Shown: positions 1,233-63,620 of the stretch, in pieces
Numbering within the stretch: position 1 is the first letter of the stretch
Layout of the letters: every line of letters starts with the position of its first letter
Source: Catajapyx aquilonaris
Lineage: Eukaryota
Direction: 5' to 3'
NCBI GenBank assembly: GCA_000934665.2
Contig: JYFJ02002012.1
Location: forward strand, 1 to 64,000
Length of the DNA stretch: 64,000 bases
The notes under the pieces: model-generated
What the model was told of the DNA's origin: nothing
Database searches by the model: none
Seen by the model: only the letters and a program-made list of their open reading frames with translations
Translations under genes and position numbers: made by a program

Positions 1233-1286
<54 letters not shown>

Positions 1287-18809: not shown

Positions 18810-20278
18810 TTAGGATCCAAGCTCCTTGTCGAACATGTAGACTCCCAATCCTTCGCCGACACGCTTCAGGTTGGTGATGTGATCAGCCAGCTCCTTGATT
18901 GCCTTGGTCTGCTCGTCCAAATACTCAGTCTCCAGGAAATCGCACAGGTTCGCATCGTGGTGACCATCCGCGACCTTGTGCAAGTCCAGCAGCATCTGCA
19001 AGGGAGAATTATTCCGGGGTCATGATGAAAACATGGCTTCGTATTACCAAGTCATATGAGTGCACGTTGTACGTGGCATGTTAATAAGGAATAATTTGTC
19101 ATGTTGCCAGGGAGCATATAAGTTATATCCTGATTCAAAAATATAATCGGACACAGGTACAACATGCAGATAAGGCTACCTTTTTTTATCGTTGACACAG
19201 AAGCTACTAGACATTTTGCGCAATAGTGTGACTTCAAGGATCAAGCAATTGACGCAGTACCTGATTGACAGTCTTTTCCAGCTCCAATGCGGCCTCCATG
19301 GCTTCCTGTGCGGTACCCCACTGGTCCATGGAAGGCTTGGCAATGGGCTGCAGGACGATGCGCCCGCCACGACGGTTCTGATACTTCATGAGTTTCTCAG
19401 CATGCTCACGTTCCTCGTCAGATGCCTTCTTGAAGTACTTGTAGTGTCCCATCAGGGCGATATCATCACGTTCGAAATAGTATGCCTGCAATGAGACAGC
19501 ACATTATAATTAACACTTCTAAAACTTGTTGACACGCAGCTTCCATGACCTCATCCAGGTGCACAAGGTCAACGCAAACTACGCAAATATTTAATCATAT
19601 TTTGCACGCTGAAATGTTTCTGAAGACCACCTATTTGGAAATACACATTGACAACAGGTGAAATTTTTGTGCCACTGCTCGCTACTGCTAACTTGTCAGT
19701 ACCCATGTTGGAAATGGTACCGATAAGTTAGCAGTACCTAGCAGTGGGTCGAACATGCTTGTTAGTTCCATCCGCTTTTTCATCGTTCACATTCTTCGCA
19801 CCTACACTACATCAGCTTATTAAATCCGTCCGATATTATCAAAAAGCCTTCTTGGCACCAACATCAAAAACTGTGAACCATTAATTCATACACTACACAA
19901 ATTAAAATTGAGCTACAAGTACCATGAACATGTACTATGATATATGTACTTATTAATGGCCAGCTAGTGTCCGTACCATTTCCGTGCTCATAGTACAATC
20001 TGGAAAAGTACTGCAATGAGCAAATATTATCCGTGACAATGTCAAGCATGATCTGTCTATTCTACGACCCCCCTTTGCTATGCGGCACTTAACACAGTTC
20101 ATGAACATGAGAGATTAAGCGTCAAGCAATCTCGGCTGTATTTTTTGTCTGAATAAGTCGTTCAACTCACCATGGACAAGTAGACATAGCTGGCATACAG
20201 CTCCATGTTAATCTGCTTGTTGACATTGGCCTCGCAGTCCTCATGGTAGTTCTGCCTGCAAATGCTGACGTTGGCCAT
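18810..20278 (-). CDS. Cytosolic ferritin, heavy-chain type (172 aa)
   Basis: Exons 20278-20171, 19485-19261 and 18995-18810. Reads [80 protein letters not shown], with ferroxidase-type residues present and no signal peptide. Confidence 0.97.
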
Positions 20279-28246: not shown

Positions 28247-28313
28247 TCTCTGGACAAGATCACAGCTGGACCATCCAACATGGCAACCTCTGCGATTCTC
28301 ATACGTGTATCGT

Positions 28314-28321
28314 TATCGATA
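28314..28321. promoter_or_regulatory. DRE-like element TATCGATA upstream of the HARBI1-like gene
   Basis: Exact palindrome about 70 bp upstream of the ATG at 28246. A second copy lies at 1430-1437. Confidence 0.4.
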
Positions 28322-30053
28322 TTTTTCAAACTGTAACCCCGCCGACTTGGCCTCTAGCTACAAAATGATGCAAATGCAACGGAATGTCAAAGATAAACTT
28401 GCGGGAAATAATACTGTAATGGTGATGTGTTAATTGGTTTGTGACTGGTCTCACGTGTGAAGTTGGGATCGTGGTTTTTGACATATTTAGATTATCTGTC
28501 CACTATACATATATAGGGAGAAGGGGATTGGCATTGCATTTGTGTGCGAGTCTCAGAAGGTTTTATAGAAATTGTGTGTGTTAAGTCTGGTATGGTTGTG
28601 TCTGGTGCCATTGGAAGAGACATTTCTGTCAACGTAAGATTATATGCATGTGAAATCATTTTTCTAAATAATGTTCATATTTCTCTAAAATACACAAGCT
28701 GGCTTGTATATACTGTGCCAGAGGTATATGAAATTATTCACTTGCATATCAATACGTACTCTTAAACATAAGGAACTAATAGCCTTTGCACGTTAATGTT
28801 CGTGGACATATTTCGGTAACAATCGTTTTCAGTGACATATTTTTCCCATAGAATCTGGAAGACGTACACCAAATTTTTAATATTTTGATCTCATAAGTTA
28901 GGGATAGTTAGGTAAAAAAAAAATACAGTGATAGGCTAATAACTGGAGAGTGCGCCTTCCTATCATAATTATGCACAGCACGCTGAAAAGCAATTGGTAT
29001 CCACCAATATAATTATTTAAGTTCTAATACATTTATGGAATCAAAATCTCAGCAAATCTGCTTGGCCAGTTTTATTCCAAATATTTGTTTCACACGTGCA
29101 AAGGGAAAGTCAAACCTGGAAAAATCATCTCCCAAAGGCCTATAAAGTAAGGAAAGGAATTAGAAAGTATCCAATATGGAACCAACTTTCCAGACAGAAT
29201 CCGGCTAAAATATACAGACTGTACTGAGTTGGCCATTATGTAATGAAGTCATCGAAAGAGTTTATTTTATGGTTAACACTGCTGCTAGAGAAATTACAAC
29301 GCACCAGAGAAATGTTTGAAAGTTATATGATTCATATCTGGGAAACTTCAAGTTGTTATAGGCTGACAATAATGTTTTCATAAATATCAATATCAGGAAA
29401 GTTCGCATTGTCACGCTCAAATAATCCATCACCTTAGGAAAATCCTAGTCAATCAAATCAACTATGACTTTAATTATCATATGCATTAACCTTGAAATAT
29501 GGAGACGTAATGAGTCAATGGAAGGACAATAACATCACGCATTTACTTGTTTTCTACACCGCAATAGTTGGGGAAGGTCGAGGCCTAAAAAGGCTTGTTT
29601 ATCGCATAAATCCGACTCTTTATGCCACTAATCAACATCCTATCGTATTACGCAACATTCGAGCCTTTACATCCTGCAAGTGCAGGTAATACAAGTATGC
29701 AAACTCTATAGTACAGGTGTATCAGGTGCGGAAGAGGAAGACAATTGACCCTAAAAGTTTCCGCCAAGCTCTGCATGTCCCACTTTCACTAACGGGTACA
29801 AGCATTTAATGGTCCAACAGAAAAATACCATAAATACATCGTACACAATATTTTAATGTCAATTTTCAACACCCCCATATTGATTAATCAATCACTAAGA
29901 ACATGTCTAACCCTTTGGCAATTGCTATGCGGTTGCGGAAAAAAGTACTGGTGCAAGTGGTATGTCTGCTGGTTCACCTTGAAGGTAGTGTACGGCAGGG
30001 AGGCGGAGGAAAAGGTTCAGTAGGTCCGTACCAGTCACCGGGTGCAGTTCATC

Positions 30054-33000
30054 ATGCAAGGGGCCAAACTGGAGGACCTGTTGCAGCTGTCAGGAAGATT
30101 CGGGAGGTACCAGTGGGCTGTGCTGATGGGGGTGGCCTTGCCTGGGGTCATCTTCCTCTGGCACAACTTCGGGATGGTCTTCGGGGCAGCGGTACCGGAC
30201 CATTGGTGCAGGCTGCCGGAAGAGTTCATGGAGACCAACTGGACCACGGAACAGATCAAGCGAGTTGCGATTCCAAGGTGCTTTTAAAAATATTTTATTA
30301 CCAAGTGTTTCAAAAATGAGCTCAATATGCTTGGCATGATGTGAACAAACATACCGGACAGGTCATTAGGTTATGGGTGTATTGTGCAACTCAAAGCAAC
30401 AATCTATTGAAGATGAGCCTTGCATACCTTGGATGCCGACCTGTATGATAGTTGACACCAATTTCATAGCATGCTTGGTATGTCTGGGAGATGATAACCT
30501 CTTGAGACAATAGTATTTTGTGTAACTGATGGTGAAACTTTTGCTTCGCAATTGTTTAGTAATCGATTCTTTGTGCATCTCCAGTCGCAATGATTTATGA
30601 GCGACAAAACTTTTTTTTAGCAAGGCACACTGGCTTCAGTGGGTTGTGTGGTGCTTGAAACGCTTCCTTCTTGGTATGAAGCCATTTTTCTTCAATAGTT
30701 GCAATGCACACCTTACCAAACATTTTTAAGGAAATGCCCATATTCTCATTTTTTGCTTCACGTTTACAAATACTAATAATAACTGAAGCTGTAGTGATTG
30801 AGCTATTGTGAATTACCTGCTCGTGTATGGATAGGTAATGTAATCATGTATTAACCGAGTTTTTAAAATCTGAATGGCGATCAAAATTAATGTCGATTAG
30901 ATTATGGTTGAGTAGTCAATGACACGCAGTAATATTAACAGATAATGCAACCTAATTGTGAGTAGAAAATACCGAATGAACTACAGTATAACACTCTCTA
31001 GAAGTCTAGATGCTGCGTTTATTCTGAACGTATCTTATTTTTTCAGTTTCTTAAAGATTGCATTTAGAATTTGTAGTGTTTATCGCTTATACGCTCGAAA
31101 TGTAGTCAAGTCACCGTCTTACAGTGCATAAATTACAGCATTACATGTTCCTGTCCTCGAAGTAATTATAGTCTACTGTTTTTCCCCCCTAAGTAGGCTA
31201 TTCTAGATATCCCTTTCTTGACCTTCAAAATACGCATTTCCCATAAGAGATGTACATGTGTATTTGGAGCAAAAATGGTACATCAAATAGGTGAAGGCTA
31301 CATTTAAAGTTTAGTCGGTTGGTAATGTACTTTTACACTGGATAAAACACAAAGGGTAACTTAACCCTTAACTACGTAGGTGGGTGAAACACCTTTAACT
31401 ACGTAGGTGGAGCCTGAGAGGCTCCAACGGTATATTTAAATTTCTGCTTATCAACTAAATTGTTATATTGGACTTTTCACATACAGAAAGTGCAGTTCAG
31501 ATCATTGGGCTTCCGAAAACGTAAAAATCACACGCTGAGTCAGCATATTCCGACAGAAAAAAAATCGTAACGCGGAACAGGTGCCACCTTGGAGCCGCTC
31601 AGGCTCCACCTACGTAGTTAAGGGTGTTGTTTTTTTCCCCCCCTATCGCGACGAAAATTCGGCCGATATACCGGTACAAACTCAAGCAGTCCTCGCGTTT
31701 GTACCGGTATATCGGGCGAATTTTCGTCCGGCGAATTTGTTTCGGGAGAAGTGTGACGAAACCAATTCAGACGCTCTCCACGGAGATAGGGAAAAATACG
31801 ACATCCTTAACTACGTAGGTGGAGCCTGAGCGGCTCCAGTAGGGACATGTTCTTCGTTACGAATTTTTTTCAGCCAAAGAATGGTGACTAAAATTCTTTT
31901 CTTCTTCTTTTCATGCTCAGGAAGATTTTTGTGACAAAGTCACGGAAGGACAGGGGGAAAAATCATTTAATTAAAAAGTTACATGCGTTTGAATAGTGGT
32001 TGGAGCCTCTCAGGCTCCACCTACGTAGTTAAGGGTTAACATTGCTTCTCTCAATGCAACGCTTTTGTTCTCATATTATTTGATCTGGCCTTCAGCAGAT
32101 AAGATTATTATTCCCTTCTGAAGAATCTGAACCTGATAATAGCATGTATTGTTAATGCAAATCCTGTCTGTGCCAAAATCGCCAAAACACATACAGTTCT
32201 GAGAAGCCTAATAATAGGCAGAGAAAATCCGTACAAAAAGTTATGAATCAATGTATATAATTATTGCTGTACGGCCTATAATGTGAATAGGAAAATAATA
32301 GTTGAGAGAGTATAATTAGTAAACCCTTCGCCTATTGCGTCTCTTATTAGGAGCCATCACTCAAGCGGCGATGCCTTTGACCACTGCCGAATGTTCCAGA
32401 GGAACTATTCTGCACTGGCTTCTTCTGGCTATCACGAAGAACTGGACAGGACAGAAGGGTTACCTGTCACCAAATGCCAAAATTGGGAGTTTGACACTAC
32501 CATGCAAACTTCAACAGTGGCAACTGAGGTCAGTCCAAATTCCGTAAAGACATTGCCCTCAACTTAATTTTTTGTTGCCTCCTACATTTTGCTGTTTTTT
32601 CTTCCTTATCACCAAGGTCATACCTGTTCAGACTTCTTACCCTTTGAGTACAGTTCGCCTGCGTCTCTATTCATTGTTTTACATCTGCAACTTTTTTCAA
32701 TCGGCATATTCGAGTATGTAAATTGTGAGGTAATAACTTGTAAACATGCAGTTTACGTGCCACTTGACTGCCTGGAAAGGAAAAGTAAGGACAGAAGTAT
32801 GTCAAGGGTTTTTACTGTTTATTTTGTACTCTCCTTTCACGCAAGTAGGCCCATCACATACTTTCCTTCTCAATATCGCATTTCCCCGTCAATTAAAATA
32901 TTTTAAAATGATTTTCAGTGGGAATTGGTGTGCGGACGCCTTCCGATGGTTCCTGTCCTGCAGACAATCTACATGGGAGGCGTCTTGGTAGGCTCCTTAT

Positions 33001-34663: not shown

Positions 34664-35160
34664 CCTAAGGGTCGGAACCAAGTGTCTCATATTAATATTG
34701 TGTGGCAGGTTCCTTTTATCTGTCTATGACAGTTGCCTGTTACATGTTAAAATATTGTAAATAGCTTCTTGCACAACCAGTGGTAATGAAGTGTTCCTGT
34801 CAGTTGCAAAATTAATAAAATCATAGTCACACTCCATCTATTATATTGCAAACGCATCCATGAGTCAAGGTCAGCCAAGGCAATGCATAACTACTATATC
34901 TTCAGGAGGTTAAAGCTTTCTAATTTGATCTGCGAAAATAATTGATCCCTGATTATAGTTTCCCAATAGACATGAATTGTTATTGATTTTCCGCCATTCA
35001 TTCGATTAGTTTAATTAAAATATTGATTTGCAGAAATATGTCGACCATTGCCCTGAGTATTAGTTCATGTGTTCAGACGATGACCTGCAGTAGTAGATAA
35101 TTATCTGCACTGAACCCACTGAAAATATACAACTGGAAATTGCTATCTGGATGTTCCACG

Positions 35161-35880
35161 TCGGGGAAGTACCAGTGGGCAATGCTGATGGGGGTGGCCT
35201 TCCCTGGGATCATCTTCATCTAGACAACTTCGGGATGGTCTTCGGGACAGCGGTACCGGACCTTTGGCTGCCAGAAGGGTTCAGAGAGACCAACTGGACC
35301 ACGGAGAAGATCAAACGAGATGCGATTCTAAGGTGAATATTTGCTTTTTTTAAAAAAGAGTGTTTCATAATTTATTGAGCTTACTTTCGATGGCGCGGAT
35401 GTTTGCACATGATGTGAACTCACATATACCAGAAAGGTAGTTAAGTTATGTGGTATAATAGTGTAACTCACCGCCACAATTTGAAGATGAGGCATAATAG
35501 AGCGTTGCATGCCTTGGATGCTGACCTGTATGCTATGTGATACCTATTTCTATTTCATAACATGCTTGGTATGTCTTGAAGATGATAACATCTTCCTGGG
35601 ACACTTTGTGTAACTGATGGTGAAACAGTCTTGTGGCTCTCAATTGTTTAGCAATAGAGTCTTTGCACAGCGTCTTGTTCATCTCCAGTCGCAATGATTT
35701 ATGAGCGCCAAGAAGTTTCTTGAGCATGGCAGACTATACAGTATACCGTCTTGTGCGTGGTGTGATGTTTGAAGTGCTTCCTTTTTTGTGTGGAACCATT
35801 TTTCTTCAATCATCGCAACGTACATCTTACCAAACGTTATATTAACGAAATGTCCGTATTAAGCGTTTTGCTTCATTTTT
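35161..35880 (+). pseudogene. Truncated, frameshifted duplicate of SLC22-A exon 1 and adjacent intron
   Basis: 35161-35331 matches 30101-30277 (CAGTGGGC..CTGATGGGGGTGGCC..ACCAACTGGACCACGGA) with indels and an in-frame TAG. The following ~550 bp match intron 30278-30760. Confidence 0.85.
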
Positions 35881-39929: not shown

Positions 39930-42213
39930 ATGGGGCTGCACTTCAACGAACTGATGGACTCTGTCGGAGACTTTGGGCCATGGCAATGGCGAGTGATGAT
40001 AGCCTCGTATCCAGCAGGTATACTTCTTCTGTACCATCACCTGTACCTTGTCTTCGGCGGGGCTATTCCGGACCACTGGTGCTCGGTGCCGGAGTTTCAG
40101 GGGACAAACTGGACCCTGGATGATGTCAAAAGGGTGTCAATTCCCAGGTAATTTCTGTGACATCCAAGGTGCGAATATGAAGTCATACTCTTTCAACCTT
40201 CAGGGAGACTTACGGAAGCGGTAACAAGTACAGCAAATGTCAAGTGTTTGTCAGAAATTACTCCGCTCTTGCTTCCATGGACACCGAAGATGTGGAAGAT
40301 CCAGGGGATGTCCCGATTGTCAACTGCCACTCATGGCAGTACGACAAGTCGGTCTACGGCAACACAATAGTGTCAGAGGTATGTGATCCATTCTACAGTA
40401 ATTTTTGAGGCAATAAAATATGAGCTTGGTTTTTACAGTGGGACCTGGTATGTGATCGACTACCATTGCTCTCCAGTGTAAATATGTGGTACATGATCGG
40501 AGTTTTATTCGGATCACTTATATTCGGAGATCTTGCAGACAGGTAAGCGACGACATGTATGAGCATTCAGCAGAAATTTATAGAGTAAGTTTTATTTGTG
40601 ACCGGACACGTTTTTCATCTTATACTACGCACTTGTATGATTAATAATATGATCAGTCTGAAGCATTCTCCAAATATTTATGTTCCAACACGTATACAGG
40701 TATGGAAGACGCACAGCATGCCTCGTTGCAACTGTGATGACCATAGTCAGTTGTGCAGCCTCCATCTTTTCTGTCAACCTTACCATGTTGAATATTACAC
40801 GATTTTTCGCTGGAATGGGTATACACGCTCTTGCCACAGTCGTCTTTCTTCTTCGTAAGTTTACCAATGAAAAAATGACACTGATTTGCCTGCAATTTAT
40901 TATGACATTCTTGTTGTCTTCAGTGCTCGAGATGATATCAGACCGTAAAAGGACAATGGTAACTTTTATACAAGACACGTCCACTGCAGTAGGAAGAGGC
41001 ACATTAGGGCTGGTAGCATACATGTTTCCTGACTGGAGGCACTTTCTCATTGCAATTTCCATACCCGTTCTCTACTCGATAACGTTTTATTGGTGAGTAT
41101 TTATTGTAGCCGTATTAATGTATCATTTATTATAAATTAACTGTAAATAGGATAATACCAGAATCACCACGATGGTTGTTGATCAATGGTCGGCATGAGG
41201 AAGCTCAAAAGTTATTTGAATATGCTGCTCGAGTCAACAAAGGCAAAGCACCTGATCCGGATCAGTTGGTCTCATTTGCTAAAGAAGCAGAGGAACAACA
41301 GGTAATTTGCAGCTTTAGGAAAGGCCTATACACGTCTATGATAATCCTGTTCATCCACAGAAATCTGGCAAAGATCTTGACGAGAAGAAAGGTGGCATAT
41401 TTTCAGCGGTTACAAGACAAGCACTTTTATTCGTGAAGACACCAGAGATGCGCAGTAGAGCAACTAAAAATTTCTTCCTATGGTTTGCAATCGGAATCGT
41501 AACCTACGGGACCATATTTGCTTTCAACGACCTTCCCATGGACCCGTACATGATCCATGTTCTGAATGGTTCAATCATTCTGGTGGCCAGAATATGCATC
41601 ATATTCTGGCCTCTCCCTGACATCATAGGTCGTCGAATGTGCTTTGCTGCCTGCTTCCTCATTGGAGGAATAGCTGAACTACTCATGATCGCAGTTCCTG
41701 AAGGTACAGCATGTACAGGGTGTCTCATAATGATTCAAACAGCCACCAAGATTTTTTTAAACTTTGACAGTGCACTATACCCTGTAGCCGTGCATTGTTG
41801 TCGTTTCAGATTGGCCTTCGTTGGCAGTCACTCTGGCTTTGGCCTGCAGCATTTTTGTATCAATGCTCTTCACTCTCATCTACCAGTACACCTCAGAGCT
41901 GTTTCCTACAGAGGCCAGACAGACTGCTGTTGGTCTGGGTTCGACCGTTTGTCGGATTGGAGCAATTTTAGCACCTTTTGTTGTCCATCTTTTGGTCAGT
42001 CAATTGCATATTGCTGCCCATTATGAGAATAACAATTTTTGGTGTTTGCAGGGCGGCCAAAGCGGAGACGTCCCTTGTGCAATTTTTGGCAGTGTGGCCA
42101 TTGCTGCAGGAATAGTGTGCCTCTTTTTGCCAGAAACTCGCAACCAGTCCTTGCCTCAGACGGTTCGAGAACTGGAAGAAGCCAGAATTAAGCGCAATAG
42201 CAAGCCAGTGTGA
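39930..42213 (+). CDS. SLC22/Orct-like transporter, copy C
   Basis: Exons 39930-40147, 40204-40378, 40439-40542, 40700-40854, 40924-41092, 41151-41301, 41361-41703, 41810-41994 and 42052-42213. Motifs GDFGPWQ, PDHWC, ADRYGRR, PESPRWL, SELFPTEARQ and LPETRN. Confidence 0.93.
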
Positions 42214-43877: not shown

Positions 43878-46800
43878 ATGCTAGCTGCTGCAGAGGATAA
43901 ACCAGAATCTCCTCAGGCGAGAAGGTAAGTCGTACAACGAGTTCCTGATTATGCAATATTAGATAATTTTATGGACTGGTCTAGAAGCATGGCTAAATAA
44001 TTTGCATTGATGACACTAACCCAATCATCAGGCAATGAAATGCTGGACTTCAAGCTCCTCTGGGGATATTCATTGATCATTACAACAATATTGGAGTACC
44101 GGTACCAGACAAGTTACTAACTAGAAATATTGCTATATTATTATGATTGTGTTGCATAGCGTGAAGGATGTTGATATGGAGTGAAAGACCTTGGTTCAAG
44201 GTTGTCTTTTGTCTGTTCTTCATTCTTCCCTTATGCCATTGAAACACTTATTTATACTTTTTATTTTTATAATTTCGACGTTACCTGCTCAGTTTGAGAA
44301 TTACAAATGGACATTATCTTGTTGCGTTGATACATGACAGATATACCTGTATTTGCAAGGCAAAATGCATGTTGGCATAAGTGCGACATTTCCAAAAACA
44401 TCTTAGTCACGGTCGCGAAATTTCCAAAGGTACCTTGAAGATGATTGCAGCTCTCAATTTAGGCTAGCATGTAAAAAAAACTCGGCAATTACCACTAACA
44501 TTCACACAATAGAGAACGTGCTGTAATCAAGGCCTCTGAGTATGTACAATTCTGCGTAGTCTTGCATAATACTGGATCCGTATCGCTCACTGATTGCAGT
44601 TGTGTTAAATTATGCCGGAAGGTTATCAATGGGGGTCTAATAAAATGCCTTCTATAAAATGTGTCAACAGAATGAATGATGATGGCTCTTTTGAGGGCCT
44701 CCTAGCGACCACAGTGGGTGAATTTGGCCGCTATCAGAAATGTTTGCTGGTGGCCTGCTTAGCTGTGACGATGCTCCTGGGAATCAACCACGATGGATAT
44801 GTGGTGCATTCAGCCTCGCCCAAACATTGGTGCAAAGTGGAAGAGCTCAGCCGCACCAACTGGACCAGAGATGAGATCATGCAAATGAGCATCCCCAAGG
44901 AGGAGGATGAAAAATGGAGCAGCTGTTCTTTCTACGACCGAAACTACACCCATTTAAGTGATCTCGGCTATTACGAAGCTTCGTCACTTGTGGCTAACGA
45001 CACATCGACTGTTCCATGCTCTTCCTGGAATTACGACAAGTCTCTGTTCATGTCCACAACTGCAACTGAGGTAAATTACACCTTGCAGTTTGGAAATGTT
45101 GGAATTACAGTAATTGTTGTGAATTTCAGTGGAATTTGGTGTGCTCCAGTGCTGCGCTGCGACCTACCATCCAAGGGGTGTATATGGCAGGAGTACTCAG
45201 CGGAAATTTTATTATGGCTCCGATATCTGACAGGTAATGCTTCATTGTGGGTTTAGCATCTCACTTTTTATTGAACACCATGAATTTTCAGCAACGCTGG
45301 TTCACTCAGTTTCAAAAACGTGCATCTGAGGACAGAAACATGATTGTACGTAATGTGTATCACCTGTCGTAATGAATGATGCGTGACTCACTTACCAGAA
45401 ACCGACCATGAGCATCAGTCATAGTATGTAGGGTTTTGACCAGTGTGAGGGTGGTCTTCACAGCGTCTAGAGTTTCTTTTACAAGCGCTTTCCTGACGTA
45501 GTTGGCTCTTTCCCAGTGCCAATTTCGCAGCTCCTTGTAATGCATCCAAAACATTTCGTGCAATTTGGAGGTATCTGCTGACTCCACCAATTTCAAATCG
45601 TCAGGTCGAGAGCAGTAGGCTATGCTGTAGTCTTCCTTTAGCATGCTCTCCGAAGCTCGCATCAGCATGTACCCAAGGTTTCTGCAGCGTTTCAAGTCGC
45701 TCTCAAAGCGCTAATTAATAATAATAATATATATTACATTTAACAAAAATTAATACGATGTCACAACTCATCAGGAACTATTGAACACAAGATGCTGATG
45801 ATTTAAAAACATTTATATCACCTCATCGTAGTCGTTTGGGTTCCTTCGACTGATTGTCATTGCGAGGTACCCTATTACTGAGGCCAGTTCGGCGACAAAT
45901 GCCTTTTGGATTTTGTGAACTTGTTCTTCAATTACCACATCTCGAACAATGTGGCAGGTTTTCATTCCAAATGTGTGCTTCAATTCCTGTGAAAAGGATA
46001 GCGTGTTTTATTGCCCCAGGCTCGCACACCAATTTGCATATTTGGATAAGAGTCACGATGCTTTACCGAAAGGTAGTTGTCGGAGTCTCTCTGAACCTTG
46101 CGGTTATTGAGCTTCTCTGTCTTGGTATGTCCTAATATGTTCGTCAGATCCAGGGCCAGCGAGTCAGTGAATTTAACGTAGCTTTCAACTTTCTAAATGA
46201 TCATTAAAATGCACGTTATAAGAATTTAAATGGAGATTAAGAAAATTTTTGGGATATTCAAGTGCTGGGAATTTAATGCCATTTCTCCTCACAATTACTA
46301 AGTAATCAGTGAGAGAAAACTTAACTTGATCGATTTTAAATATTTGCTATTCATTGTTACAAATATTGTTACCATACTGAAACCGATGTTCTGGATATAC
46401 TACGGCATGACAATTTTTCTTCACGACTGAATTATTCCGCATGTTCAAGGGCCTATTAGTTCATACCTCTGCCGACAGTGCCTTGGGTTTCTTTGCAAGG
46501 CTCTTCAACTGGAAATTCACGCACACTTCCAATCGTATCAAAATATCAGAATGATTGGTGAGGATTGACTGCACCTGGAGGTCTTCTCGAATGTCATCAA
46601 AAGGAGCCACTTCTTTGTTTTCCTTTATTAACTCATTCAACAACTCCTGAAGTGAAAAAAGCAGCACATTTTGAACATTGCATGTATACAGTGTATACAT
46701 GTCGGCCTATCGTAATATTACTGAGGTCTTACCGTCATCTCTGGCAAAAGGTCGCTGGCACTCTTGAGCAGAGTCCAACAATCGATTGAGTCCTCATCCA

Positions 46801-48651
46801 TCTTGAACTTGAAAAAACTGTTTTACTTATCTGGGTGTAAAATCAGAACCCGAATTCTGACCAACTATACTGATATAGCCGACAATAATAGAGGAATGAC
46901 ACTCAATAGTGTAACCCTAGAGTTGCTAATAAATAAGCAAGTGTAGCCAAAATTTCTGAGGCTGATGTACTAAATAAATTCCTGGCAACTTATGGATGTA
47001 ATTGGCGGTATGTTTCTAAATGTGAGAGTTTATAATTCAGAAGCCATTTTCATTTTTTCAGGCTAGGTCGTCGAGTAGCTGTGATGATTTCGTTGGTGCT
47101 TCTGATATTTGCCAGCTTTGCTTCAGCCCTGGTGCCTTCATATGCAGCTTTCGTGGCCATGCGTTTCTTTGCTGGTGTCGGAGTCATGGGTTCTTATGCA
47201 AACACCTACATTATTTGTGAGTAAAGTGCTGATAAATGGAATCTCCTCAAGTTACATATTATTGAGATTCGAACTTATATTCCGTATACAGTATTGGAGA
47301 TGGTTGGATTACCTCAGCGAGTTAAGATCGTCTTCTTCTACGATGTTGGAGTGGCATTTGGAATAATGGTGCTCTCGGGGTTGTCGTATCTTCTGCGGGA
47401 CTGGAGGACATTGATGCTTACCATTGCTTCTGGGTGCTCTCCCCTCCTCCTATACTACTGGTACGTAACAGCATGTGTGCATCTGAGGTCCCAAACTTAA
47501 CCGAATTTTATTCAGGGTCATACCAGAGTCTCCTCGTTGGCTGCTGCTTCATAATCGACAAAAAGACGCGGAGAAAATCCTCAGAAAAGCCATCAAATGG
47601 AATAAGATGGACGTGACTGACGAGGAGCTTTCCTCCAAGATATCTTCTCTATCACTTGATAAAGTAATAACACCTGCTGATGCATGACTTTGTGGTATTA
47701 CAATGTGCATTTCTTAACTTCAGGCCGGATCTTCAGTGTGTTGCAACGGGCTTTTGGGAGTGGTGTCGCTTTGGCGTACCCCTGAAATGAGAAGTCGAAG
47801 TTTCAAGATACATATGGCTTGGTTGGGAATAGGAGCAGCAGCTTTTGGATCAACTTACCTGGTCACTGGACTGCCCATCAGCCCTCACTTAGCAATGTTT
47901 GCATACAGCTTTGAAGCTATGATTGTTCGCATCCTTTTCTTCAAGCCTGTCTCTAAATTGCCAAGAAGGAAGGTGTTTGCAGCAACTTTTATTGGACTGT
48001 CTCTGTCACTTGTTAGCTCATTGTTTGTACCTTCAGGTAACATCTTGTACATTACACTTACGTGAGCTGGCCACTAATGTAGAATAATATTCATTTCAAC
48101 AGATTTGCCTTGGTTGGGATTTGCAGTACTTCTGCTATCCAAGATGTTCATAGCTGTCATTTTCAGCACAATTTACCTGTACACTGGAGAGCTATTTCCG
48201 ACTTCTATAAGAAGCTCAGCCATTGGCGTTGGATCAGTGTTTGCTCGCATAGGTGCCATTCTTGCGCCATATATTGTGGCTCTCCTGGTAGGTTTGTGTA
48301 ATTTATAGGCAAAAAAAAGTATTGCTTACTATAAGGGCAATTTCATTTCAGTCGCCGTATCATAGCGCAATTCCAGGAGGGATATTTGCAGCTTTGACTA
48401 CATGTGCAGTTATCATGGCCCTTCTCCTTCCTGAGACAAGAGAAGAGAATCTTCCAGACACGATTGCAGATGTTGAGAATTGGCGTCAGCGTAAGAGAGG
48501 GTTAGTTGAACAAATGCCTTGGTTATCAATGTGTAGCTAATTATGCGTTGATAACGTTGCATAAATTCATATAAGATTACGAGAAAGCTAATGTAATTGC
48601 ATGATCCTTTGCAGGATAGCCGGTGCTGGAAGTGGAGACGATGCTTTGTAA
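43878..48651 (+). CDS. SLC22/Orct-like transporter, copy D (host of a nested antisense gene)
   Basis: Exons 43878-43924, 44671-45070, 45130-45233, 47062-47216, 47292-47460, 47516-47663, 47724-48036, 48103-48287, 48352-48500 and 48615-48651 (or read-through to a stop at 48540). Motifs GEFGRYQ, SDRLGRR, PESPRWL and GELFPTSIRS. Confidence 0.9.
45302..46801 (-). CDS. Nested antisense gene, ~292-aa protein of unrecognised family
   Basis: Six exons 46801-46733, 46646-46467, 46192-46067, 45986-45822, 45710-45396 and 45325-45302. All introns are GT-AG and phase 0, with no internal stop. Minus-strand AATAAA at 45272-45267. Confidence 0.78.
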
Positions 48652-50428: not shown

Positions 50429-53230
50429 ATGTCTGCAAGAATAATCCGGGACGGATCACGTCCTTATTCAGAAAGGTAAGGTAATAAGTATATGAATATA
50501 AAATGACACATAAATCTGCAATTATAAAATGAGATAAAACTCACTATGTATGTTTATGGAGTCCCAAAATGTTGCTTTTTATTTAAGCCCAGGTGATGGT
50601 TGCTCTTTTGAAGAAGTCCTGTCATCGACTGTGGGCGAATTTGGTCTGTATCAGAAAGTGCTTCTTGCGGCATCATGGGCTGTGACAATTACTCTGGGAA
50701 TCAACCACTACGGATATGTGGTGCACTCTGCCTTGCCCAATCACTGGTGTCAAGTGGATGAGCTCAGAGACACCAGCTGGACGCAAGATCAGATCATGGA
50801 AATCAGCATCCCAAAAGAAGGAGACAAATGGAGCCGGTGCTTTTTCTACCAGAGAAACTACACCCATCTGAAGCAGTTCAGTTTCCTCGAAGCTGTGACA
50901 ATGGTCGAAAATGTCACAGCCCCAACTACCTCTTGCTCTTCTTGGCACTATGATAATACATTCTACTCCTCTACTACCACAACTGAAGTAAGGGACCTAT
51001 ATTGTACACCATACCGGTACATTAATTAGTCAGTAATTATTAATAATAAACATCATTAGAAAAATCATAAAAACACATTGATACAACATATAAAGAGAAC
51101 TTCTATTTGAATTGTCACATTGAAAATTTATTCCATCGTGACTCTGGTTATTCTGAAATAAGTCAAGATCTTATTTAATTTTGACATCAAACACATACCT
51201 TTTTTGATAGCTTTTATTGAATAACGTTACGTATTCATTCCAATATTTCAGTGGAATTTGGTTTGCTCCCATGAGGCGTTACGGCCTACAATTCAAGCAG
51301 TGTACTTATCCGGCGTACTCGTGGGAAATTTAATAATGGCTCCTATTTCTGACAGGTTTGTAATAATTTTTAATTTAACTTTAAAAAGGTATCATGTCAC
51401 TTCATTTCACTCGAATTAAAAATAGCAGCATTTTATTCTCACTCCGCTGTAAATAGGCCTGCACATTATATTTCTTGAAGGTTGGGACGTCGTGTAGCAG
51501 TATTGTTGTCATTGTTCCTGATAATAATAGGCAGCTTTGCCTCAGCATTGATTCCATCCTATGGATTATTTTTACCTCTTCGTTTCCTGGCTGGCATTGG
51601 TGTTATGGGATCGTACGCAAACACTTACATTCTATGTACGTATGTCTTTGTTAGTTGTTATTATTTCCAGTTGTGTCTAATGTCCCATGTGCCTGGTTTG
51701 GTTTTAGTGTTGGAGTTTGTGGGGTTCTCTCAGAGGATAGCAGTTACCTGCTTTTATGATATGGGAGTATCAGCAGGAGTCATCATGCTCGCTGGAGCAT
51801 CATATCTTATGACAGACTGGAGGACGTTGTTGTTGGCCACAGCCATTGGGACCCTTCCACTGATTCTGTATTATTGGTAGGTCACAAACACAACACGTCT
51901 CCAGCAATTGCAGTGCATTCAATATTGCAGGATTATACCAGAATCTCCACGTTGGTTGCTTCTGAAGAGAAGGCAAAAAGAAGCAGAGGTCATCCTGCAG
52001 AAAGCCATCAAATGGAACAAACGCGACGTGTCAGACGCACAGTTGTCTTCTGTGCTGACAATCCCCGTCGAAAATGTAAGCATTTGTCGCCAATCAACTT
52101 CTTCATGACGCAAGTGGGTGATGTAACCACTGCGTTATCTCAGCTTCCTACAACATCGCTAGATGGCAAACACTAGTCAGATTCATGCCTAAATGCAGTG
52201 CTAATGTGATTGAATGGACCTGTGACCCTTGACCAGTTTGAATTTTTGGCACAGACAAAGAAGCCCAGATGTGGGATGGGACTTTTTACCTTATGGCTCA
52301 CACCTGAGATGAGAAGTCGTAGCCTAAAGGTGCACGTAACATGGTTGGCCATAGGAGCAGCCTCCTTCGGGTCAACATACTTGATCGTCGGATTGCCCAT
52401 CAGCCCTCATTTTACCATGTTGCTCTACAGTGTTCAAGCGATCATCATACGGCTGCTTCTTTACAGACCTATTTCCAAGCTGTCAAGGAGGAAGGTGTTT
52501 GCAGCGTCATTCATTGGATTGTCGCTCTCACTTGCCTGCTCATTATTCATACCTGAAGGTCAGCACCATTGCTTTGATTGCTGTTCTGGGTTTACCATCT
52601 CAATGTATCCTCAGAGTTACCATGGGTTGGGCTGGCAACTCTGATGGTGTCCAAGATGAACATATCTATCAATTTCACCGTGATTTACCTCTTCACCGGC
52701 GAACTGTTCCCGACCTCAGTGAGAAGTGGGGCTATTGGAATAGGATCTGTGCATGCACGTATTGGCGGTATCTTTGCACCGTACATTGTGGCGCTTCTGG
52801 TATGTCTTACATTCCATACCAACTGCTCATGATGATGGGAAACATTTATAAGCCTGTCATGATGCTGGGGTGTATTTCTTCAGGTGCCGTATCATCGCGC
52901 AATTCCAGCAGCCATATTTTCTGCACTTAGTGCTTGTGCAGCTGTTATGGCTCTCCTTTTGCCAGAAACCAGAAGTGAGAATCTTCCGGATACGGTTGCA
53001 GATATCGAAATGTGGCGTCAACGTAAGCATAAGTAAGAGAGGAATTCAGAGTTATTATGATTGGTTCTATTAGTTATTTAGGTCAGTAATATATAACTAC
53101 CATAATTTCCTATTAATGTCACTACCCTCTAAAATATGCCAATTATTTTTATATACTGTATTATGCTTGTTTTATTTCCAGAGCAGAAAAAGAAGAGCCA
53201 GAAGAGTTGGCACTTTCTCCTCAAAAATAG
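50429..53230 (+). CDS. SLC22/Orct-like transporter, copy E (closest paralogue of D)
   Basis: Exons 50429-50475 (or 49546-49595), 50588-50987, 51252-51355, 51481-51635, 51708-51876, 51931-52075, 52255-52558, 52615-52799, 52884-53032 and 53182-53230. AATAAA at 53241. Confidence 0.9.
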
Positions 53231-54910: not shown

Positions 54911-57900
54911 ATGAAGCTGTTGTGCCTAGGACTGCTCTTTTGGGCGGGTCTGCACTCGGCCATCGCCAAGACAGGCAAGTGTTTCCATTGCATGTTTTTC
55001 GCAAACGTATACTATTTCAACTTTACCATCGAAACTTAGAACTTATGCTATACAATGAAGCTTGATTGATACTGAAAGAAATTATGACAAGCATTTTAAT
55101 GAGTACAAGTAGGTGCTGGTATTTGAAAACCCAATTAATTATCCTGCTAAATACACACAGAAATTTGTATCTTTATTTGCACTTTGTCTTAGTGTCTTAA
55201 TATTGTATAGTTATGGTTGGGGGATTGAATTTTAATTTTCAAATTTGGTCATCTTTTTTGGGCGGACAAAAGCAGATTTTCAAGTTGGGTAATGGAGTGC
55301 AAATACGGATCCAGTGGTGCCTTATTGGTGTACCTGAATGTGGCAACAATTTAACGAACTATCCGCTATCGGCGCCTAAAAAAGCGTTTGTCAAACACTG
55401 ACTCACTGATAGTGACTTGGCAACTGTAATCACCAAGATTGTGCGTCTGTTTGCATTCGCTTTCTACGAGGAGACAAAAAACGGTTACAAGCCCAAAATA
55501 CAACATTGGTGTCCCTCAACTTATTTGTTATGGAATGTATTACTTTATGAACATAACTGTATCAATACGTATGATATGCGCATGTATGCAAACATTATTG
55601 CAATGTACCAGTTTGTGCAAAAAGATTCAGACAAGTGGTTCGAGGTTTTACTGTTTCATCCTTCATTGGATGAGTAATATTTTCCAAACCATTTTCGTGA
55701 ACCTAGCCAGCTCTAAATCGAAAAGTCAACCTATCATTATTTATCTGCCTTTGTGCGATTATTCGTGAACTTCTTACAGATAAACCAAAAGTCAATTATC
55801 ACTTACCTTGAGTAAAATTCTGGTCTGGCTATTCAACTGTGAATCTGACTAATACTGAATTCTCCATCAGACTATATGTCGGCAGCAGCCAGAGATGACA
55901 CCCCCTATGTTCTGACCCCTCAAGAACTGGCCAGAATTAGGGCCGAATTCATGTACCCCTTCTCGGACCAAGGTCCTCCAGAAGGTCACGGAGACTGGAT
56001 GAACAACATAAAAGACACAAACCCACAGATCAACCAACAACTCAATTTCCTCTTCCCATTCTACGGATTTGGATACAACTACACCTGGGTACGGAAAAGT
56101 ACTCCAACTTTATAGTACATGAACATAATCCTGTGGTTGTCTATTGGCAGGTGTCTCTCAATGGATTCTTAGCATTCAGTGACTCTCCAGACATATTCAC
56201 GTACCCTCTTAACTTTCCGATGAAAGATTGGCCTTCAGTGAACGACCCATCCTTCATAGGACCGTGGTTCAGCAGGTGTAGCATTGGAAAACAAAAAGGT
56301 GTTGAGGCAGACAGACGACGACCTGGAGTGTACTTCCGGTAAGTAATGAGGGTAATGAGACACACACCACAAATATTTTTAACATATATATTTTCGCAGT
56401 TTGGAGCGTGATTTGCCTAAACGAGTGGACAAGTTTGGTGTCCAGCTTAGGGAACGTCTTAAGTGGGACTTGAGAGAATCGATGATCGGAACTGAGGCTT
56501 TTGAACCTCGACATTCCTTCATTACCACCTGGAAAAATGTCACGTTTGCTGGAGGTTACCGATCTCAAGAGGTGGTAAGTATCGTCTTAGCACTGCTGTT
56601 GCGGTATGACTCTTGAGTGTTTTTGTCGTTTTTCAGACCAACACCTTTCAGTCCGTACTCACTACGGATGAGATCCGTACTTATGTCATTTTCAACTATC
56701 AGTTCATTGAATGGACAACTGCCACTGAAGCTGGAGGAGATATCAACAAGGGTTTGGGAGGCACCCCCGCTTTCGTGAGTGTCTAGTATTTTTCAACTCA
56801 TTTTAACACAAAAAATAGTACCAACAAAATACTCGTTTATTTTTGTGGCACAGATCGGATTTAATGCTGGAAATGGAACTAGATCCTACGAATACAAACC
56901 ATTTTCACAAACGGCCAAGATCATGGACGTACTCACCACTGGAAATGCGAACGGATTCCCTGGTCGACATGTGTTCAGAATTGACGAAAACATCTTATCT
57001 GGAGTTTGCCGTCCTGACTACTGTAAGTGACACGTAATATTTTTTGACTATGAGTGTCATTCAGCTGTCCATGAATTTTTCCCATTATTTTCATTATTTG
57101 GTTGATTGCTTCATACTACTTTCTGTCACAGATCTTACGAATCTGCCCTTGACCTTCGCCCCAGAGAATGGCAACATGCTGGGTGGAACATTGGTCAACA
57201 TATCTGGGCCTTGCTTCAAGCCAAACATGAGGGTCAATTGCAGGTAGGTAACACTTTGTATGACATACCCTCTACTTCAACTAACATGCAACATCCTCTC
57301 AGGTTCTACACGACGGAGGTGACTGGATGGGTTTTTGATCAGAACAGAGCTGCATGCATCATGCCACGAGTCTACACTAATGGGTACATCGACTTCGCTG
57401 TTGCTATCGACGGAGGCCCATACTACTGGAAAGGACGTTTTCTAGTTGGTAAGTCCCGATTAATAACAGTACAAAGATCCAGATTCATGCTGTTTATGTT
57501 TGTGCAGAAACTCCACTGACAACCCATGACATGATATGGTTCCAAACTGACGACGTACAGTTAAAAAATCCGACATCATTTCAAATCAACTGGGACATTG
57601 GGAACTTGACGCAGAATACAAACGCGCGGGTGCAAATATCGCTATGGGGCTATCGAGAAAAGACGATCAGACCAGAAATCGTCTATATTGACACCCTAGT
57701 ACCTGGTACTGCCAATATTGGTAAATATACCTTGACAATGTCAGACTACGACACCAAGTACAACACGGACCTGCTGGACCTCGATTTCGGTTTCATCCAG
57801 ATCAACATCACAAATCCTCAGTCAGAGTTGAAAACATCCATATCTCCGTGAGTATACCGGTACATCTCTCGATTGGAATCATGCATGATGGGTTCGATGT

Positions 57901-60900
57901 TCCGCAGGCAAATCTGGAGCAAGCCCATACCACTGGCCTGGTATTTCCGAAGACAGTGGGAGAGGCAGCTGGGGTACGACTGGGTGGTGACCAAGTGTTT
58001 CAACTGGATCTACAGGGATCGTAGCTACCGAAACTTCGCAGGTGCACTGCCAATGTGTCCATGTCTTTTGCGTCAGGCTGTGGCTGACAAAGGACGGTAT
58101 GCACCTGACTTCTCCTGTGACAAGGACGGGAACAGCAATTGCTACTACCATCAAGGAGCCAGACATTGCGTCAGGACAGGGCTGCCAAAGTACGTTGATA
58201 ACAATAAATAACTATAAGCACTACTACAACTAAGTGACCATTTTCAGCACTGACGGTGCCGGACAGCAATGTTGCTACGACAAAGACAATTACCTGATGA
58301 TGACTTCGGACAATATGTGGGGAGGTAACCCTCAGAGAGTGCATAATATCGGTATCCTCCCATGGAATGAAGTCGGAAAGGTGCCTTCTCTGTCATACTG
58401 GTACCAAGATATGATTGCCTTCTACATGTGCTGCATGTGGCAGTCGGAGCAGTCTGACTCTTGCATCAGGTACCGGTTCGAGCGACGTGCATCTCAGGAC
58501 TGCAGAGGGTACCAACCACCCGCTGTCGGTAAGGCATTGTTAAACCCCAACGACAACGATGTCCGTGTGTACACAGCTTTAACACAGTCAATGTCTTTCA
58601 AGCCGCTGTCTTCGGAGATCCCCACTTCTACACCTTCGACAACCTGCAGTACACGTTCAACGGCAAAGGAGAATTCGTACTGACTCGTGTCAACACTGCC
58701 TCGATGCGTTTGGATGTGCAGGCAAGATTCGAACAAGTGCCACGAAATTTCTACGGGCCTGTGGGTGGTACGACTCTCACAGCCGTTGTCGGTACGTGCC
58801 ATCATATATCCGTACTGTTCACTGTACTAATCAAATTTTTTTAAAAAAATTGAACAGCTAAGGACAACTCTTCGACCCAAGTGGAGGTTCGACTTCGACC
58901 TCTGGTAGCTCGCTGGAGGTACAATCTTGATGTTATTGTCGATGGACAGCGCACGTACTTTGACCGACCACCGCAGAAGATCCAGTACTTCAGAGGTTTG
59001 TGATCTGATATTTTTTTTCGAATTTGAGACATAAGATGTTGTTTTTGGGTCTCAGGAGTGACTGTGTACACTCCAAGCAACATCCTGAACCAGAGTCAAG
59101 TGGTCATTATGTTCCCGACTGGAGCAGGAGTTGAAGTAGTCGAGAACATGGGACATATGACAGCCCGTGTGTACTTGCCAATGGAATTTGTGGTGAGTTG
59201 AACTCTAAAGTTAGGTTCACACGGACATTGTTGTCATTATTTGAGTCGTTTTGTGTAAATTAACATTGAGTCTGTTCGTTTCAGAACAAAACGTTAGGAT
59301 TGCTCGGAAATTGGAGTTATGACGTTACAGACGACTTTACGTTACCGGATGGGACAAGAGCATCGACTAGCAATCCGCAGGATAGTTTACAGACTGTCCA
59401 TGACAACTTTGGAATGAAATGTAAGTCGACTCATGAGCTGAATATACTCGTACTCTAAAAGAAAAGGGTGAAGAATTTAAAAAAATTGTACATGGTACAT
59501 ATTATTGTTTTTTCATTGCATACATTTTTCAGGGGTACTGGACGATAAGGAGGATCCGCAGAAAGGAAAGTCTCTATTCTACCACGACGCAAATCGTCCA
59601 TCCACATTCTATTACGACAAGGACTTCAGGCCAGAGTTTAGAACACGACCTGAAGATATTCTACCTAAGAATGTGTACGTATTATAATTCTATGCTTATA
59701 CCCAGTTGGACACACCAATATAATAATTTTGCTCAAAATACTCAGAACCGTGACTGCATCTGACGTCCGAGATTTTTGCGGAGATTCGTACCAGTGCCAG
59801 TACGACTTCTCGGTCACTTTGGACAAAGATCGTGCCTTCTACTGCAAGTACTACCAGGACAATTACGTCAACATCAGGTTCCTCAACTTGGCTTATGGTA
59901 TTAAAATTGATAAAAAGATTTTCTAAAAAATATAGAGCGGGATTTTTTAAAACAATAAACCTAAATGGTGTCTGGTGTATTGATGACCTTTTTCCTGCAG
60001 TGGTGTCGTGCGGGTCACTGACGACCCCCAAGCATGGTCGAAAGAGTACCTACGCCTTCATCCCCAACACCATGGTGAAGTTTGATTGCGACCCCGGATA
60101 TCTTCTGGTTGGAGACAGACGACGCTGGTGCTACGCCACTGGAGAGTGGAACATACCCGATAACGGTCCAGCTCGATGCATCTGTAAGTATTTTCGTAGC
60201 AATGTAAAGTTCTGTACATTTTCGTGGTGTCATCAATGTTTGACTTCCCTCATGACATCCTATCCAACCCCAACCTCCATTAGCCTCGGCCGACTACCAG
60301 GCCCAACAAGCAGGTATCGCCACCGGAATAGTGATGGCCGTGTTGATCCCAGTGATCCTCCTGGGTCTGGCCATCTACATAGTGTTACAACGTCGTCGAT
60401 CCGAGGACACATTCATCAATCCTTCCCGACAGACCCCTCGAACCTCAACCCCTCGTCCTGCATACCCCATGAAGGAAGTAGACAGCAGCACAGCCAGCGT
60501 TGACCCATCCCGGTCACTCAACACCAGCAGGACCAGCCTCGATTCCAATTGCTCAGGAAAAAAGAAACGCAACTACGATCGTGTCTACTACACACACGAA
60601 CCTCTGCCTGGAAAGGACAATACAGACGGGTTCGAAGGCAAGGACTGGGATATCGGAGAGGAAACTACGGCTTAATAGCTGGAAATATATACACATTTTT
60701 ATTCTTGATAACACAATATAAATTACATTGTATGGATAGCTTGTAACTGCCTAGGTCGACATGACCCATTCATTTAGATTGGCTGCTGTAGGACGGAAGA
60801 GCAATACCTGTTCGTTAAGGATGATTTGAAACGGAGAGGTATTACGCACCTGACCAGTGACTAGTTTTGTGACTGTTTTTTTTTTAAAAAAACTGATTGT

Positions 60901-61783: not shown

Positions 61784-63386
61784 AAAGTGTTTAGCAACAC
61801 TCAATTTTTTTAGAGACATGCAAGTGCGTCATAAATTCACCTCTTTAGTGAAGCAGTGATTAACTGCCCGGTGAATGCTCACATCATTCAGTTACGTATT
61901 TTTAGCAACAATAGATATCATTTAGGTAGAGTCTGAATTTTTGACCGCAATGTATAACTTTCACTACGATTTTCTGTTGTTACATTATTACTCCCTTTTT
62001 TAAGCTACAGTGATTACATGAATAAGTTCAAAGGTACCCGTTGGTAAAAGTTGTCATTATGTATTGTATTGGAATTGAATATAAATAAATGATTTGTGAA
62101 TGAGTGTTTTATGTAAACAAAATTACAGGATGGGTACGAAATGATTACAGACATTGGATTGGCAAGAATAATACTGTATTTAAATACAGTACCGTCTGAA
62201 TCCTTGACGCCTGTAAGGTATGCCACCCGTGATACAAGTGTGCTGTTGCATATCATTCAGGATGAGAAACAGATTTGCTTCCGCTGCCATTAGCGTTGAC
62301 TTTTCGAGAACAAATCGACACTTCAAGTAAGCATACCTCAAGCCAAGACGAACGAAGTTGTTTATAGGTACGTATATTTAGTTTTGATTTTCCCCCTGGA
62401 TCCTTTTTTTTTTGTTTTTGTTTTTTGTTTTTTAAATACTAGTATGATTTGTTGCATGGAACTTACAATTAGTTTAATGCATGTGTGATGAGGCCCAAAG
62501 TAATGCCTTACAACCTACTCATTAGAATACCGGTACTATAAAAGGACGCCATTTAATTGTAAGAGTTGTGAAGAAAAGGTATTTAATTACACTTGATACT
62601 CTGACACACCATTGCATTGTGTTTATCCTAGTCTTGATCTTTGCAACAAATCACTTAACATTCCAAATGGCATGTGACTACAGAGAATGTAGCAGAATGT
62701 ACCGTAGTTTGCTTTCCAGAAGTCATTTCAACTGTGTGTGTCAGTTGAATAAAAATAGTGATAATTTATGTTTGGAGCATGCCAAACAAAGGTTTCATAA
62801 AAATTATCACTTTTAATCATTAATTCAGGGAAAATGTTATGCATTTGAATATCAAACATTCAGGATGACATTTCCAGATTTCTTCCTGCTTGGCTTCCAT
62901 AGTGGACTCACTTTGTTTGGGGCAAGATGACTGACATTTGGCTCTTTACTGATGCTATTTTAACTCGAAGGTCAAACCTCTTTTGATAAGAGCTACTGTA
63001 CATTATATAAATCACCACGATATCTGGATGTCCACATTATCAAAGAACCTTGGCTTTGTAGACTCAACCATGCCATTTTATTTGCATGAACACTACACCT
63101 GCATCATAAGTAGAGGGTGGATAGTTATGTTTTTACACATATTTTTCCTCTGTATGCACGAGGGCGTGATTTGTACGAAAATCCTAATCATGACATCTGG
63201 AGTCCAAAAAAGTGGGTTTTATTTTGCATATAAAAGAATATTTCAAGCTTAACGAGATATTTTGGCTCTAGCAACATATTTGGAATATTTCACACTTTTT
63301 CCTTCATTAATCTTGTTATCTACGTATTTCTATTCAAATTATGTCAGGTCCTGCAAAAAAATCATGGCTGGAATATCGTAAACAAT

Positions 63387-63620
63387 ATGGCTGAGATCCT
63401 GCGCAGGCACTCTGCAACTGCGGTGCCTGAGATATACACTCACCAGCATGTCTCCATGGTTAAGTTCGCACCAATAACCACATGCGATGTGGAGAGGTCA
63501 TTTTCCACTCTCAAGGCCACTCTCAGTGAGAGAAGGCAGCAATTGACTGCATCAGATTTGGAACAAATAATTGTCTCGCATTGCCAATTCAATGAAAGTA
63601 GTGAAATTGAAGACTATTGA
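63387..63620 (+). mobile_element. hAT-type transposase C-terminal (dimerisation-region) remnant
   Basis: KFAPITTCDVERSFSTLKATLSERRQQLTASDLEQIIVSHC resembles the hAT C-terminal 'P.TS..VERSFS' motif. No upstream coding continuity is visible. Confidence 0.7.

Follow-up and report, generated by a model that had tools for sequence, protein, structure and literature searches.

The window analysed here is a stretch of 64,000 nucleotides (nt) from Catajapyx aquilonaris (contig JYFJ02002012.1 of GenBank assembly GCA_000934665.2, positions 1 to 64,000 of the forward strand). Its plus strand carries a tandem array of five MFS/SLC22-like genes (30024-53033), which we call A (about 30.0-34.6 kb), B (36.3-38.8 kb), C (39.8-42.2 kb), D (44.6-48.5 kb) and E (50.5-53.0 kb). 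All five match the Pfam families Sugar_tr/MFS_1 and also match each other; the test covered membership of the MFS, and SLC22 is a label that we presume to be the right one. Within the second intron of gene D, on the minus strand, lies a six-exon reading frame, hereafter the nested gene, which had been proposed in a first-pass annotation of the same DNA. On the basis of intrinsic sequence statistics we consider it likely that this is a real antisense protein-coding gene, nested in D intron 2.

The spliced model of host gene D is open for 549 codons on the plus strand, and intron 2 is its sole long intron; every other intron of D and E measures 54-264 nt. While D intron 2 spans 1828 nt, the homologous intron is only 125 nt long in E (51356-51480) and 157 nt in C (40543-40699), in good agreement with the 1.8 kb and about 125-160 bp given in the first-pass annotation. 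Genes A and B have no intron at this position, their exons reading straight through, and the presence of the intron thus divides the array into A and B, which lack it, and C, D and E, which have it. The D and E proteins are 64.7% identical, and the sequences of their introns at this position do not align. Between A and B, a degenerate partial copy of the first exon of gene A together with an intronic element is found at 35097-35595 (+), where 35225-35350 matches 30033-30284 and 35500-35595 matches 30415-30504; this is probably a pseudo-exon left over from tandem duplication.

Joined by coordinate, the six exons of the nested gene (69, 180, 126, 165, 315 and 24 nt for exons 1 to 6) give a frame of 292 amino acids (aa) with no internal stop, running from an ATG at 46801 to a stop at 45302 on the minus strand; the coding sequence 46801-45302 and a downstream AATAAA both lie inside the host intron 45234-47061. 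Introns 1 to 5 (86, 274, 80, 111 and 70 nt) all begin with GT and end with AG, and four of the five fall within 70-111 nt, comparable to the 54-264 nt of the host. Since all six exon lengths are divisible by three, all five introns are in phase 0, whereas the seven introns of the host are in phases 0, 2, 1, 2, 0, 1 and 0. Retention of an intron would bring in an in-frame stop within 2-12 codons or add a length that is not a multiple of three; intron 3 is the exception in that it holds no in-frame stop, but it is 80 nt long. Retention of intron 5 would place the end of the frame 11 codons past exon 5. Skipping of exon 3 leaves the frame intact, and the codon score of this exon is coding-like. 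The longest stop-free piece of the gene comprises 116 codons, and a BLASTP comparison of one half of the protein with the other revealed no internal duplication. At this level the first-pass annotation was accurate: every exon coordinate and peptide that it gave for the antisense frame is present in the sequence, the five phase-0 GT-AG introns and the unbroken frame of about 292 aa are as it described them, and the AATAAA, which it placed 30 nt after the stop and about 35 nt from the host 5' splice site, was measured at 29 nt past the stop and 33 nt from host exon 2.

An unbroken frame with GT-AG introns is, taken alone, no more than can be expected by chance. Dynamic programming was used to find the longest ATG-to-stop frame that can be assembled using up to five GT-AG introns, each 45-600 nt long. 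With a free choice of GT and AG sites, 35% of 600 Markov windows (1828 nt each, generated from a third-order model of the noncoding DNA of the window) reached a frame of at least 879 nt; the median longest spliced frame in 70 real tiles (35 positions, both strands) was 939 nt, and the other strand of the same D intron 2 yields a spliced frame of 945 nt. An argument from frame and GT-AG introns is worthless alone because one random window in three passes it, and the argument of the first-pass annotation, which was of this kind, is weak for the same reason. When a purine at +3, a pyrimidine at -3 and phase 0 throughout were demanded, only 2 of the 600 Markov windows reached 879 nt, and the longest frame in 28 real noncoding windows was 807 nt; this stricter test is of limited weight, because the phase-0 condition was picked post hoc. 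That the nested gene goes beyond chance therefore follows from other features, namely splice strength, codon use, contrast in guanine-plus-cytosine (GC) content, acidic content and an ATG-free leader.

To score the splice sites, donor and acceptor weight matrices were trained on 14 host introns of D and E that are fixed by exon alignment. The ten sites of the nested gene (Table 1) fall in a range similar to that of the host sites scored by leave-one-out (1.2-8.8 bits for donors, 1.4-10.1 bits for acceptors), while the noncoding medians are 0.8 bits (3708 GT sites) and 0.9 bits (3530 AG sites). The donor of exon 5 is at the 99.97th percentile among noncoding GT sites. We then combined the splice bits with 0.03 bit per coding nucleotide, without any coding term, in an optimiser that searches for the best-scoring gene model. 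Restricted to D intron 2, the optimiser returned exactly the six exons of the first-pass annotation with a score of 85.4; scores in the 28 real noncoding windows ranged from 58.8 to 81.8, and those of known-gene windows, on the coding strand, from 84 to 112. We also ran the optimiser over a wider region (44300-48200) under eight parameter settings, and all eight kept the exon 2 donor at 46467, the exon 4 acceptor at 45986 and the exon 5 donor at 45396.

The coding features were compared with null models that were themselves the best models of the same optimiser in noncoding DNA, and which are thus also stop-free and well spliced. The synonymous-codon log-odds of the nested gene is 0.087 bit per codon (real noncoding DNA, -0.049±0.047), the difference between exon and intron GC is 0.123 (0.021±0.034), and Asp and Glu together make up 16.4% of the protein (6.6±2.4%); for each of these three features, none of the 28 real noncoding models and none of 500 Markov models was as high. 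The mean helical hydrophobic moment of 0.90 (0.645±0.096) was likewise unmatched in the 28 real noncoding models, and was matched by 7 of the 500 Markov models; as for length, the real noncoding models reached at most 248 aa, and a single Markov model in 500 was as long as the nested gene. The features are nearly uncorrelated in the null, the largest correlation being 0.41 between codon score and GC contrast, and for all five taken jointly the squared Mahalanobis distance of the nested gene is 67.8, compared to a maximum of 25.7 among the 500 Markov models. The exon-intron GC contrast resembles that of the host and its neighbour (0.126 in D, 0.111 in E). Optimiser models of known-gene windows, i.e. 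those of the glucosamine-6-phosphate isomerase (GNPDA), ferritin and AMOP/VWD genes and of transposon open reading frames (ORFs), have codon scores of -0.02 to 0.09, GC contrasts of 0.01-0.105 and Asp+Glu contents of 9-14%; the nested gene lies within or above these values in all three. The nested model thus groups with real genes and lies beyond the noncoding null on every axis, and the first-pass claim of a real protein gene is supported by these intrinsic statistics instead of by the argument that was originally given for it.

The ends of the nested gene are marked by several signals. Upstream of the start codon there is an in-frame stop at a distance of 8 codons, and the leader is free of ATG over a length that is rarely seen: gaps of at least 243 nt account for 0.5% of the 1448 ATG-to-ATG gaps in the noncoding DNA of the window. 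A TATAAA is present further upstream at 47034-47029 (-); with about 0.2 chance occurrences estimated per 260 nt it is not significant alone, but if it is used, transcription would start near 47005. No part of the gene is less certain than its 3' end, whose containment inside the intron is probable. The features of the host intron and of the nested gene are collected in Table 1.

Table 1. Features of host gene D around intron 2 and of the nested antisense gene (splice-site scores in bits).
Feature	Positions	Strand	Remarks
Host gene D exon 2, beside the 3' end of the nested gene	45130..45233	+	
Host gene D intron 2, holding the whole nested gene	45234..47061	+	1828 nt, GT..AG, phase 2
Host gene D exon 3, beside the 5' end of the nested gene	47062..47216	+	
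Putative promoter-proximal region and 5' untranslated region	46802..47046	-	no ATG for 243-245 nt (ATG scan)
Nested gene exon 1, coding part, 23 codons	46733..46801	-	donor 4.8; start context AAGATGG
Nested gene exon 2, 60 codons	46467..46646	-	acceptor 10.7, donor 7.2
Nested gene exon 3, 42 codons	46067..46192	-	acceptor 3.0, donor 2.0; weakest splice sites
Nested gene exon 4, 55 codons	45822..45986	-	acceptor 6.9, donor 3.8
Nested gene exon 5, 105 codons, largest	45396..45710	-	acceptor 2.2, donor 11.3
Nested gene exon 6, 7 codons and TGA stop (45304-45302)	45302..45325	-	acceptor 7.1
AATAAA polyadenylation signal	45267..45272	-	29 nt past the stop, 33 nt short of host exon 2

The predicted product has a mass of 34 kDa, an isoelectric point of 5.9 and a grand average of hydropathy of -0.43; it is rich in Leu (12.7%), Glu (8.9%) and Lys (8.6%), with 1.7% each of Gly and Pro. 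The two strongest peaks in the periodicity of its hydrophobic residues are at 7.3 and 3.7 residues, and an AlphaFold2 model of exon 5 alone consists of helices at residues 2-27, 36-43 and 47-104. We found no signal peptide, hydrophobic N-terminus, membrane segment or recognisable catalytic motif in the protein. The model and the composition are consistent with a soluble, mildly acidic, all-alpha protein that would reside in the cytosol or the nucleus; the helical, soluble protein of the first-pass annotation thus finds support in composition, hydrophobic periodicity and the exon 5 helices.

Searches for relatives in Pfam, the PDB and the ESM Atlas, as well as the other homology and structure searches, were made exon by exon, and the deep search used exon 5 (105 of the 292 aa). 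When exons 1 to 5 and the 116-aa ORF were scanned with Pfam, no family was found at E ≤0.001, the best values being 0.054 and 0.18 for unrelated families; a scan of this type could overlook a weak family whose match is distributed over more than one exon. A likeness to small helical families such as that of cyclin-D1-binding protein (GCIP) was considered and dropped, as the same exon-wise Pfam scan does not support it. The exon-wise PDB sequence search gave no match and the exon-wise search of the ESM Atlas nothing usable, while Foldseek of the exon 5 model against the PDB returned 0 matches at E ≤10. A HMMER search with exon 5 against 1.84 billion representative sequences gave a single match at E ≤0.001, a bacterial repeat protein of 1836 aa; we judge this match to be spurious, as one 32-residue stretch of the query was matched to 12 repeats, so that chance similarities were summed. 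In JGI metagenome contigs, exon 5 gave 446 pattern matches, of which 0 were confirmed. A word-index homology search with exon 5 found no longer protein, and this blank carries little weight because a control with the host exon 47754-48041 also gave none. Rfam gave 0 matches over the whole window.

How far such negative results reach can be judged from a GNPDA exon used as a control, which found 7999 proteins from many animals; the best 120 listed were 81-89% identical, and none of these was identical. Animals are thus represented in the database, but this species and its close relatives are missing from it. Among these best 120 listed, the 81-89% identical GNPDA proteins come from insects, bivalves, rotifers, tunicates and vertebrates. 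For the nested gene, the lack of a homologue means that exon 5 has no detectable similarity to proteins of distant animals, which falls short of proving an orphan. In the first-pass annotation the family was not recognised, and this is borne out by the exon-wise Pfam, PDB and Atlas searches and by Foldseek with exon 5. Its term "orphan" is overstated, given that the searches ran exon by exon and that the deep search comprised exon 5 only.

Several observations weigh against a real nested gene, or against parts of the model as drawn. The splice-plus-length score is suggestive, and by itself not decisive: 5 of 800 Markov windows reach 85.4, i.e. a per-window p of ~0.006, and over the ~70 strand-windows in 64 kb about 0.4 chance finds are therefore expected. 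(With Gumbel distributions fitted to the null scores, p was ~0.03-0.04, but the tail fitted poorly, and the empirical 5/800 was used instead.) In the wider optimiser runs, exon 3 and exon 6 were included in none of the eight settings, and the models ran into the antisense of host exons instead. We read the loss of these two exons as a limit of a crude optimiser, because the antisense of coding exons is rich in open frames and the score lacks a coding term; the inclusion of exon 3 and the 3' end of the gene are nonetheless uncertain, and exons 3 and 6 rest mainly on coding-like composition, on the strength of the exon 5 donor and on the AATAAA. That all five introns are in phase 0 is unusual. 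Training of the codon model drew on only ~3500 codons from the window's other genes, which encode mostly membrane proteins. In the ESM Atlas, exon 5 had a recognition value of 1828 and exon 2 one of 1578, while 91% of proteins of known families reach 2300. The mean predicted local distance difference test (pLDDT) of the exon 5 model was 67.6, and we give it no weight as a test of reality because a control, a 104-aa ORF from presumed noncoding DNA (2541-2852, minus strand), scores about the same (62.6). Finally, the product may act without enzymatic activity as a helical-bundle or coiled-coil subunit, binding other proteins or serving as a scaffold, but this is a guess from composition only.

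Among the rival explanations, the one that survives best, although we hold it to be improbable, is that the frame has a coding origin but does not function here, being either derived from a mobile element, as its cargo or remnant, or the decaying duplicate of a gene located elsewhere. In line with this, D intron 2 carries an insertion of 1.7 kb when compared with the paralogues, no homologue marks the nested gene as a conserved cellular gene, and other transposon fragments are present in the window: a Harbinger-type DDE_Tnp_4 fragment at 26590-27012 (-) and a hAT C-terminal dimerisation region at 63234-63617 (+). Against this reading, D intron 2 is free of terminal inverted repeats, long terminal repeats and flanking direct repeats, and the only repeats found between 45100 and 47200 are one 17-nt direct and one 15-nt inverted pair, neither of them at the ends of the insert. 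In addition, the Pfam scan found no transposase, reverse-transcriptase or integrase domain in the first five exons, and there is no second copy of the nested gene, as DNA or as protein, within the 64-kb window. As the nested gene has introns, and these are of host-like size, it is not a retrocopy, and the frame, start, stop and all ten splice dinucleotides are intact across 879 nt. The agreement of codon use and GC contrast with those of resident genes also argues against this reading.

It is very unlikely, in our view, that the frame stays untranslated, the locus giving rise to a spliced non-coding antisense RNA or to no RNA, and that its coding-like statistics are a leftover or a coincidence of composition. 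Such a view would account for the low ESM Atlas recognition values and for the lack of a homologue, but the synonymous-codon bias and the Asp+Glu content (each 0/500), together with the ~3.7-residue periodicity, mark a translated sequence, and the ATG-free leader and good start context point in the same direction. Least probable is a chance construct of stop-free pieces chained via GT and AG, as is possible in any intron: although free splicing readily gives frames of this length, and reading by whole codons would favour phase-0 joins, an optimiser trained solely on host introns yields the same six exons, the strict splice conditions are very rarely met in random windows, the five features are jointly far outside the null, and the construct coincides with the one intron in D and E that is long.

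If the nested gene is real and protein-coding, as we prefer, its own promoter would lie in the ~260 nt that separate its ATG from host exon 3; the major spliceosome would remove its introns, and with a poly(A) site ~15-35 nt before host exon 2 the mRNA would be ~1.1 kb long. The gene would then be the cause of D intron 2 being ~1.7 kb longer than in the paralogues. It may have entered after the D/E duplication or may have been lost from E, the two histories put forward in the first-pass annotation. Host and nested gene would be convergent through the same DNA; by analogy with known nested genes, they would most likely be active in different cells or at different times, or else interfere with each other's transcription. 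A more far-reaching suggestion, which we consider rather unlikely, is that an undescribed family of acidic all-alpha proteins, restricted to one lineage, has the nested gene as its founder, and that the gene entered D intron 2 after the D/E duplication. It would then be fairly young and yet possess five introns, all of phase 0; if true, this would be a dated example of a multi-exon gene arising in, or relocating into, an intron. Its six exons and resident-like codon use do not give the nested gene the appearance of a young de novo gene.

Genes within introns are common, and most of them lie on the strand opposite to the host. In the account of PMC3786989, intronic genes make up ~6% of D. melanogaster genes, ~85% of them protein-coding, and Drosophila 2mit lies in intron 11 of timeless2 in the opposite orientation; for human nested genes, PMC3192792 gives ~63% on the opposite strand and describes the correlation with host expression as debated. 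Like 2mit, the nested gene described here is a complete protein-coding gene in a single host intron and in the opposite orientation. Unlike it, 2mit is a recognisable leucine-rich-repeat receptor with orthologues in many insects and with expression that has been shown. The present case also differs from the usual one in that the gene fills almost the entire intron, in a host whose other introns are short, and it shares no similarity with its SLC22-like MFS host, from which it also differs in strand. It may resemble taxonomically restricted genes, in so far as exon-wise searches (Pfam, PDB, Atlas, representative sequences, JGI), the deep one being with exon 5, gave no significant true similarity. 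Antisense nesting in an intron is ordinary in animals, and it may be that only the protein is new.

For annotation, the gain is a probable gene for a 292-aa protein, which would escape pipelines that rely on ORFs or on homology, as its longest open stretch measures 116 codons and the exon-wise searches yielded no true homologue. In terms of method, we suggest that splice strength, codon use, GC contrast and acidic content, when compared with optimised nulls, can settle such cases without RNA data. The gain for biology is modest: one further candidate for a lineage-restricted protein family, and a further pair of host and nested gene suited to asking if a transporter and a gene unrelated to it are coupled by convergent transcription.

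Elsewhere in the window, exons of glucosamine-6-phosphate isomerase are found at 13388-17218 (+; Pfam Glucosamine_iso, 7e-09), and a ferritin exon at 19237-19503 (-; Pfam Ferritin, 2.5e-18). A large gene at 55849-60672 (+) has AMOP, VWD, mucin-4-like C8-3 and Sushi domains, is SUSD2/mucin-4-like, and has introns of ~60 nt. Long ORFs on both strands at 27568-28430 have no Pfam match. At 944-1418 (+) there are long open frames with runs of Asn, Gln, His and Ser, which represent either low-complexity coding sequence or a simple repeat. The 104-aa ORF at 2541-2852 (-) that served as the AlphaFold2 control has a predicted template modelling score of 0.52, with a beta-rich domain and one helix and no Pfam match, and it may itself be a real, perhaps transposon-derived, coding remnant. 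An open frame of 283 aa at 21666-22514 (+) belongs to no Pfam family; the splice-plus-length score of its window is 93.9, and it is probably another gene of an unrecognised family.

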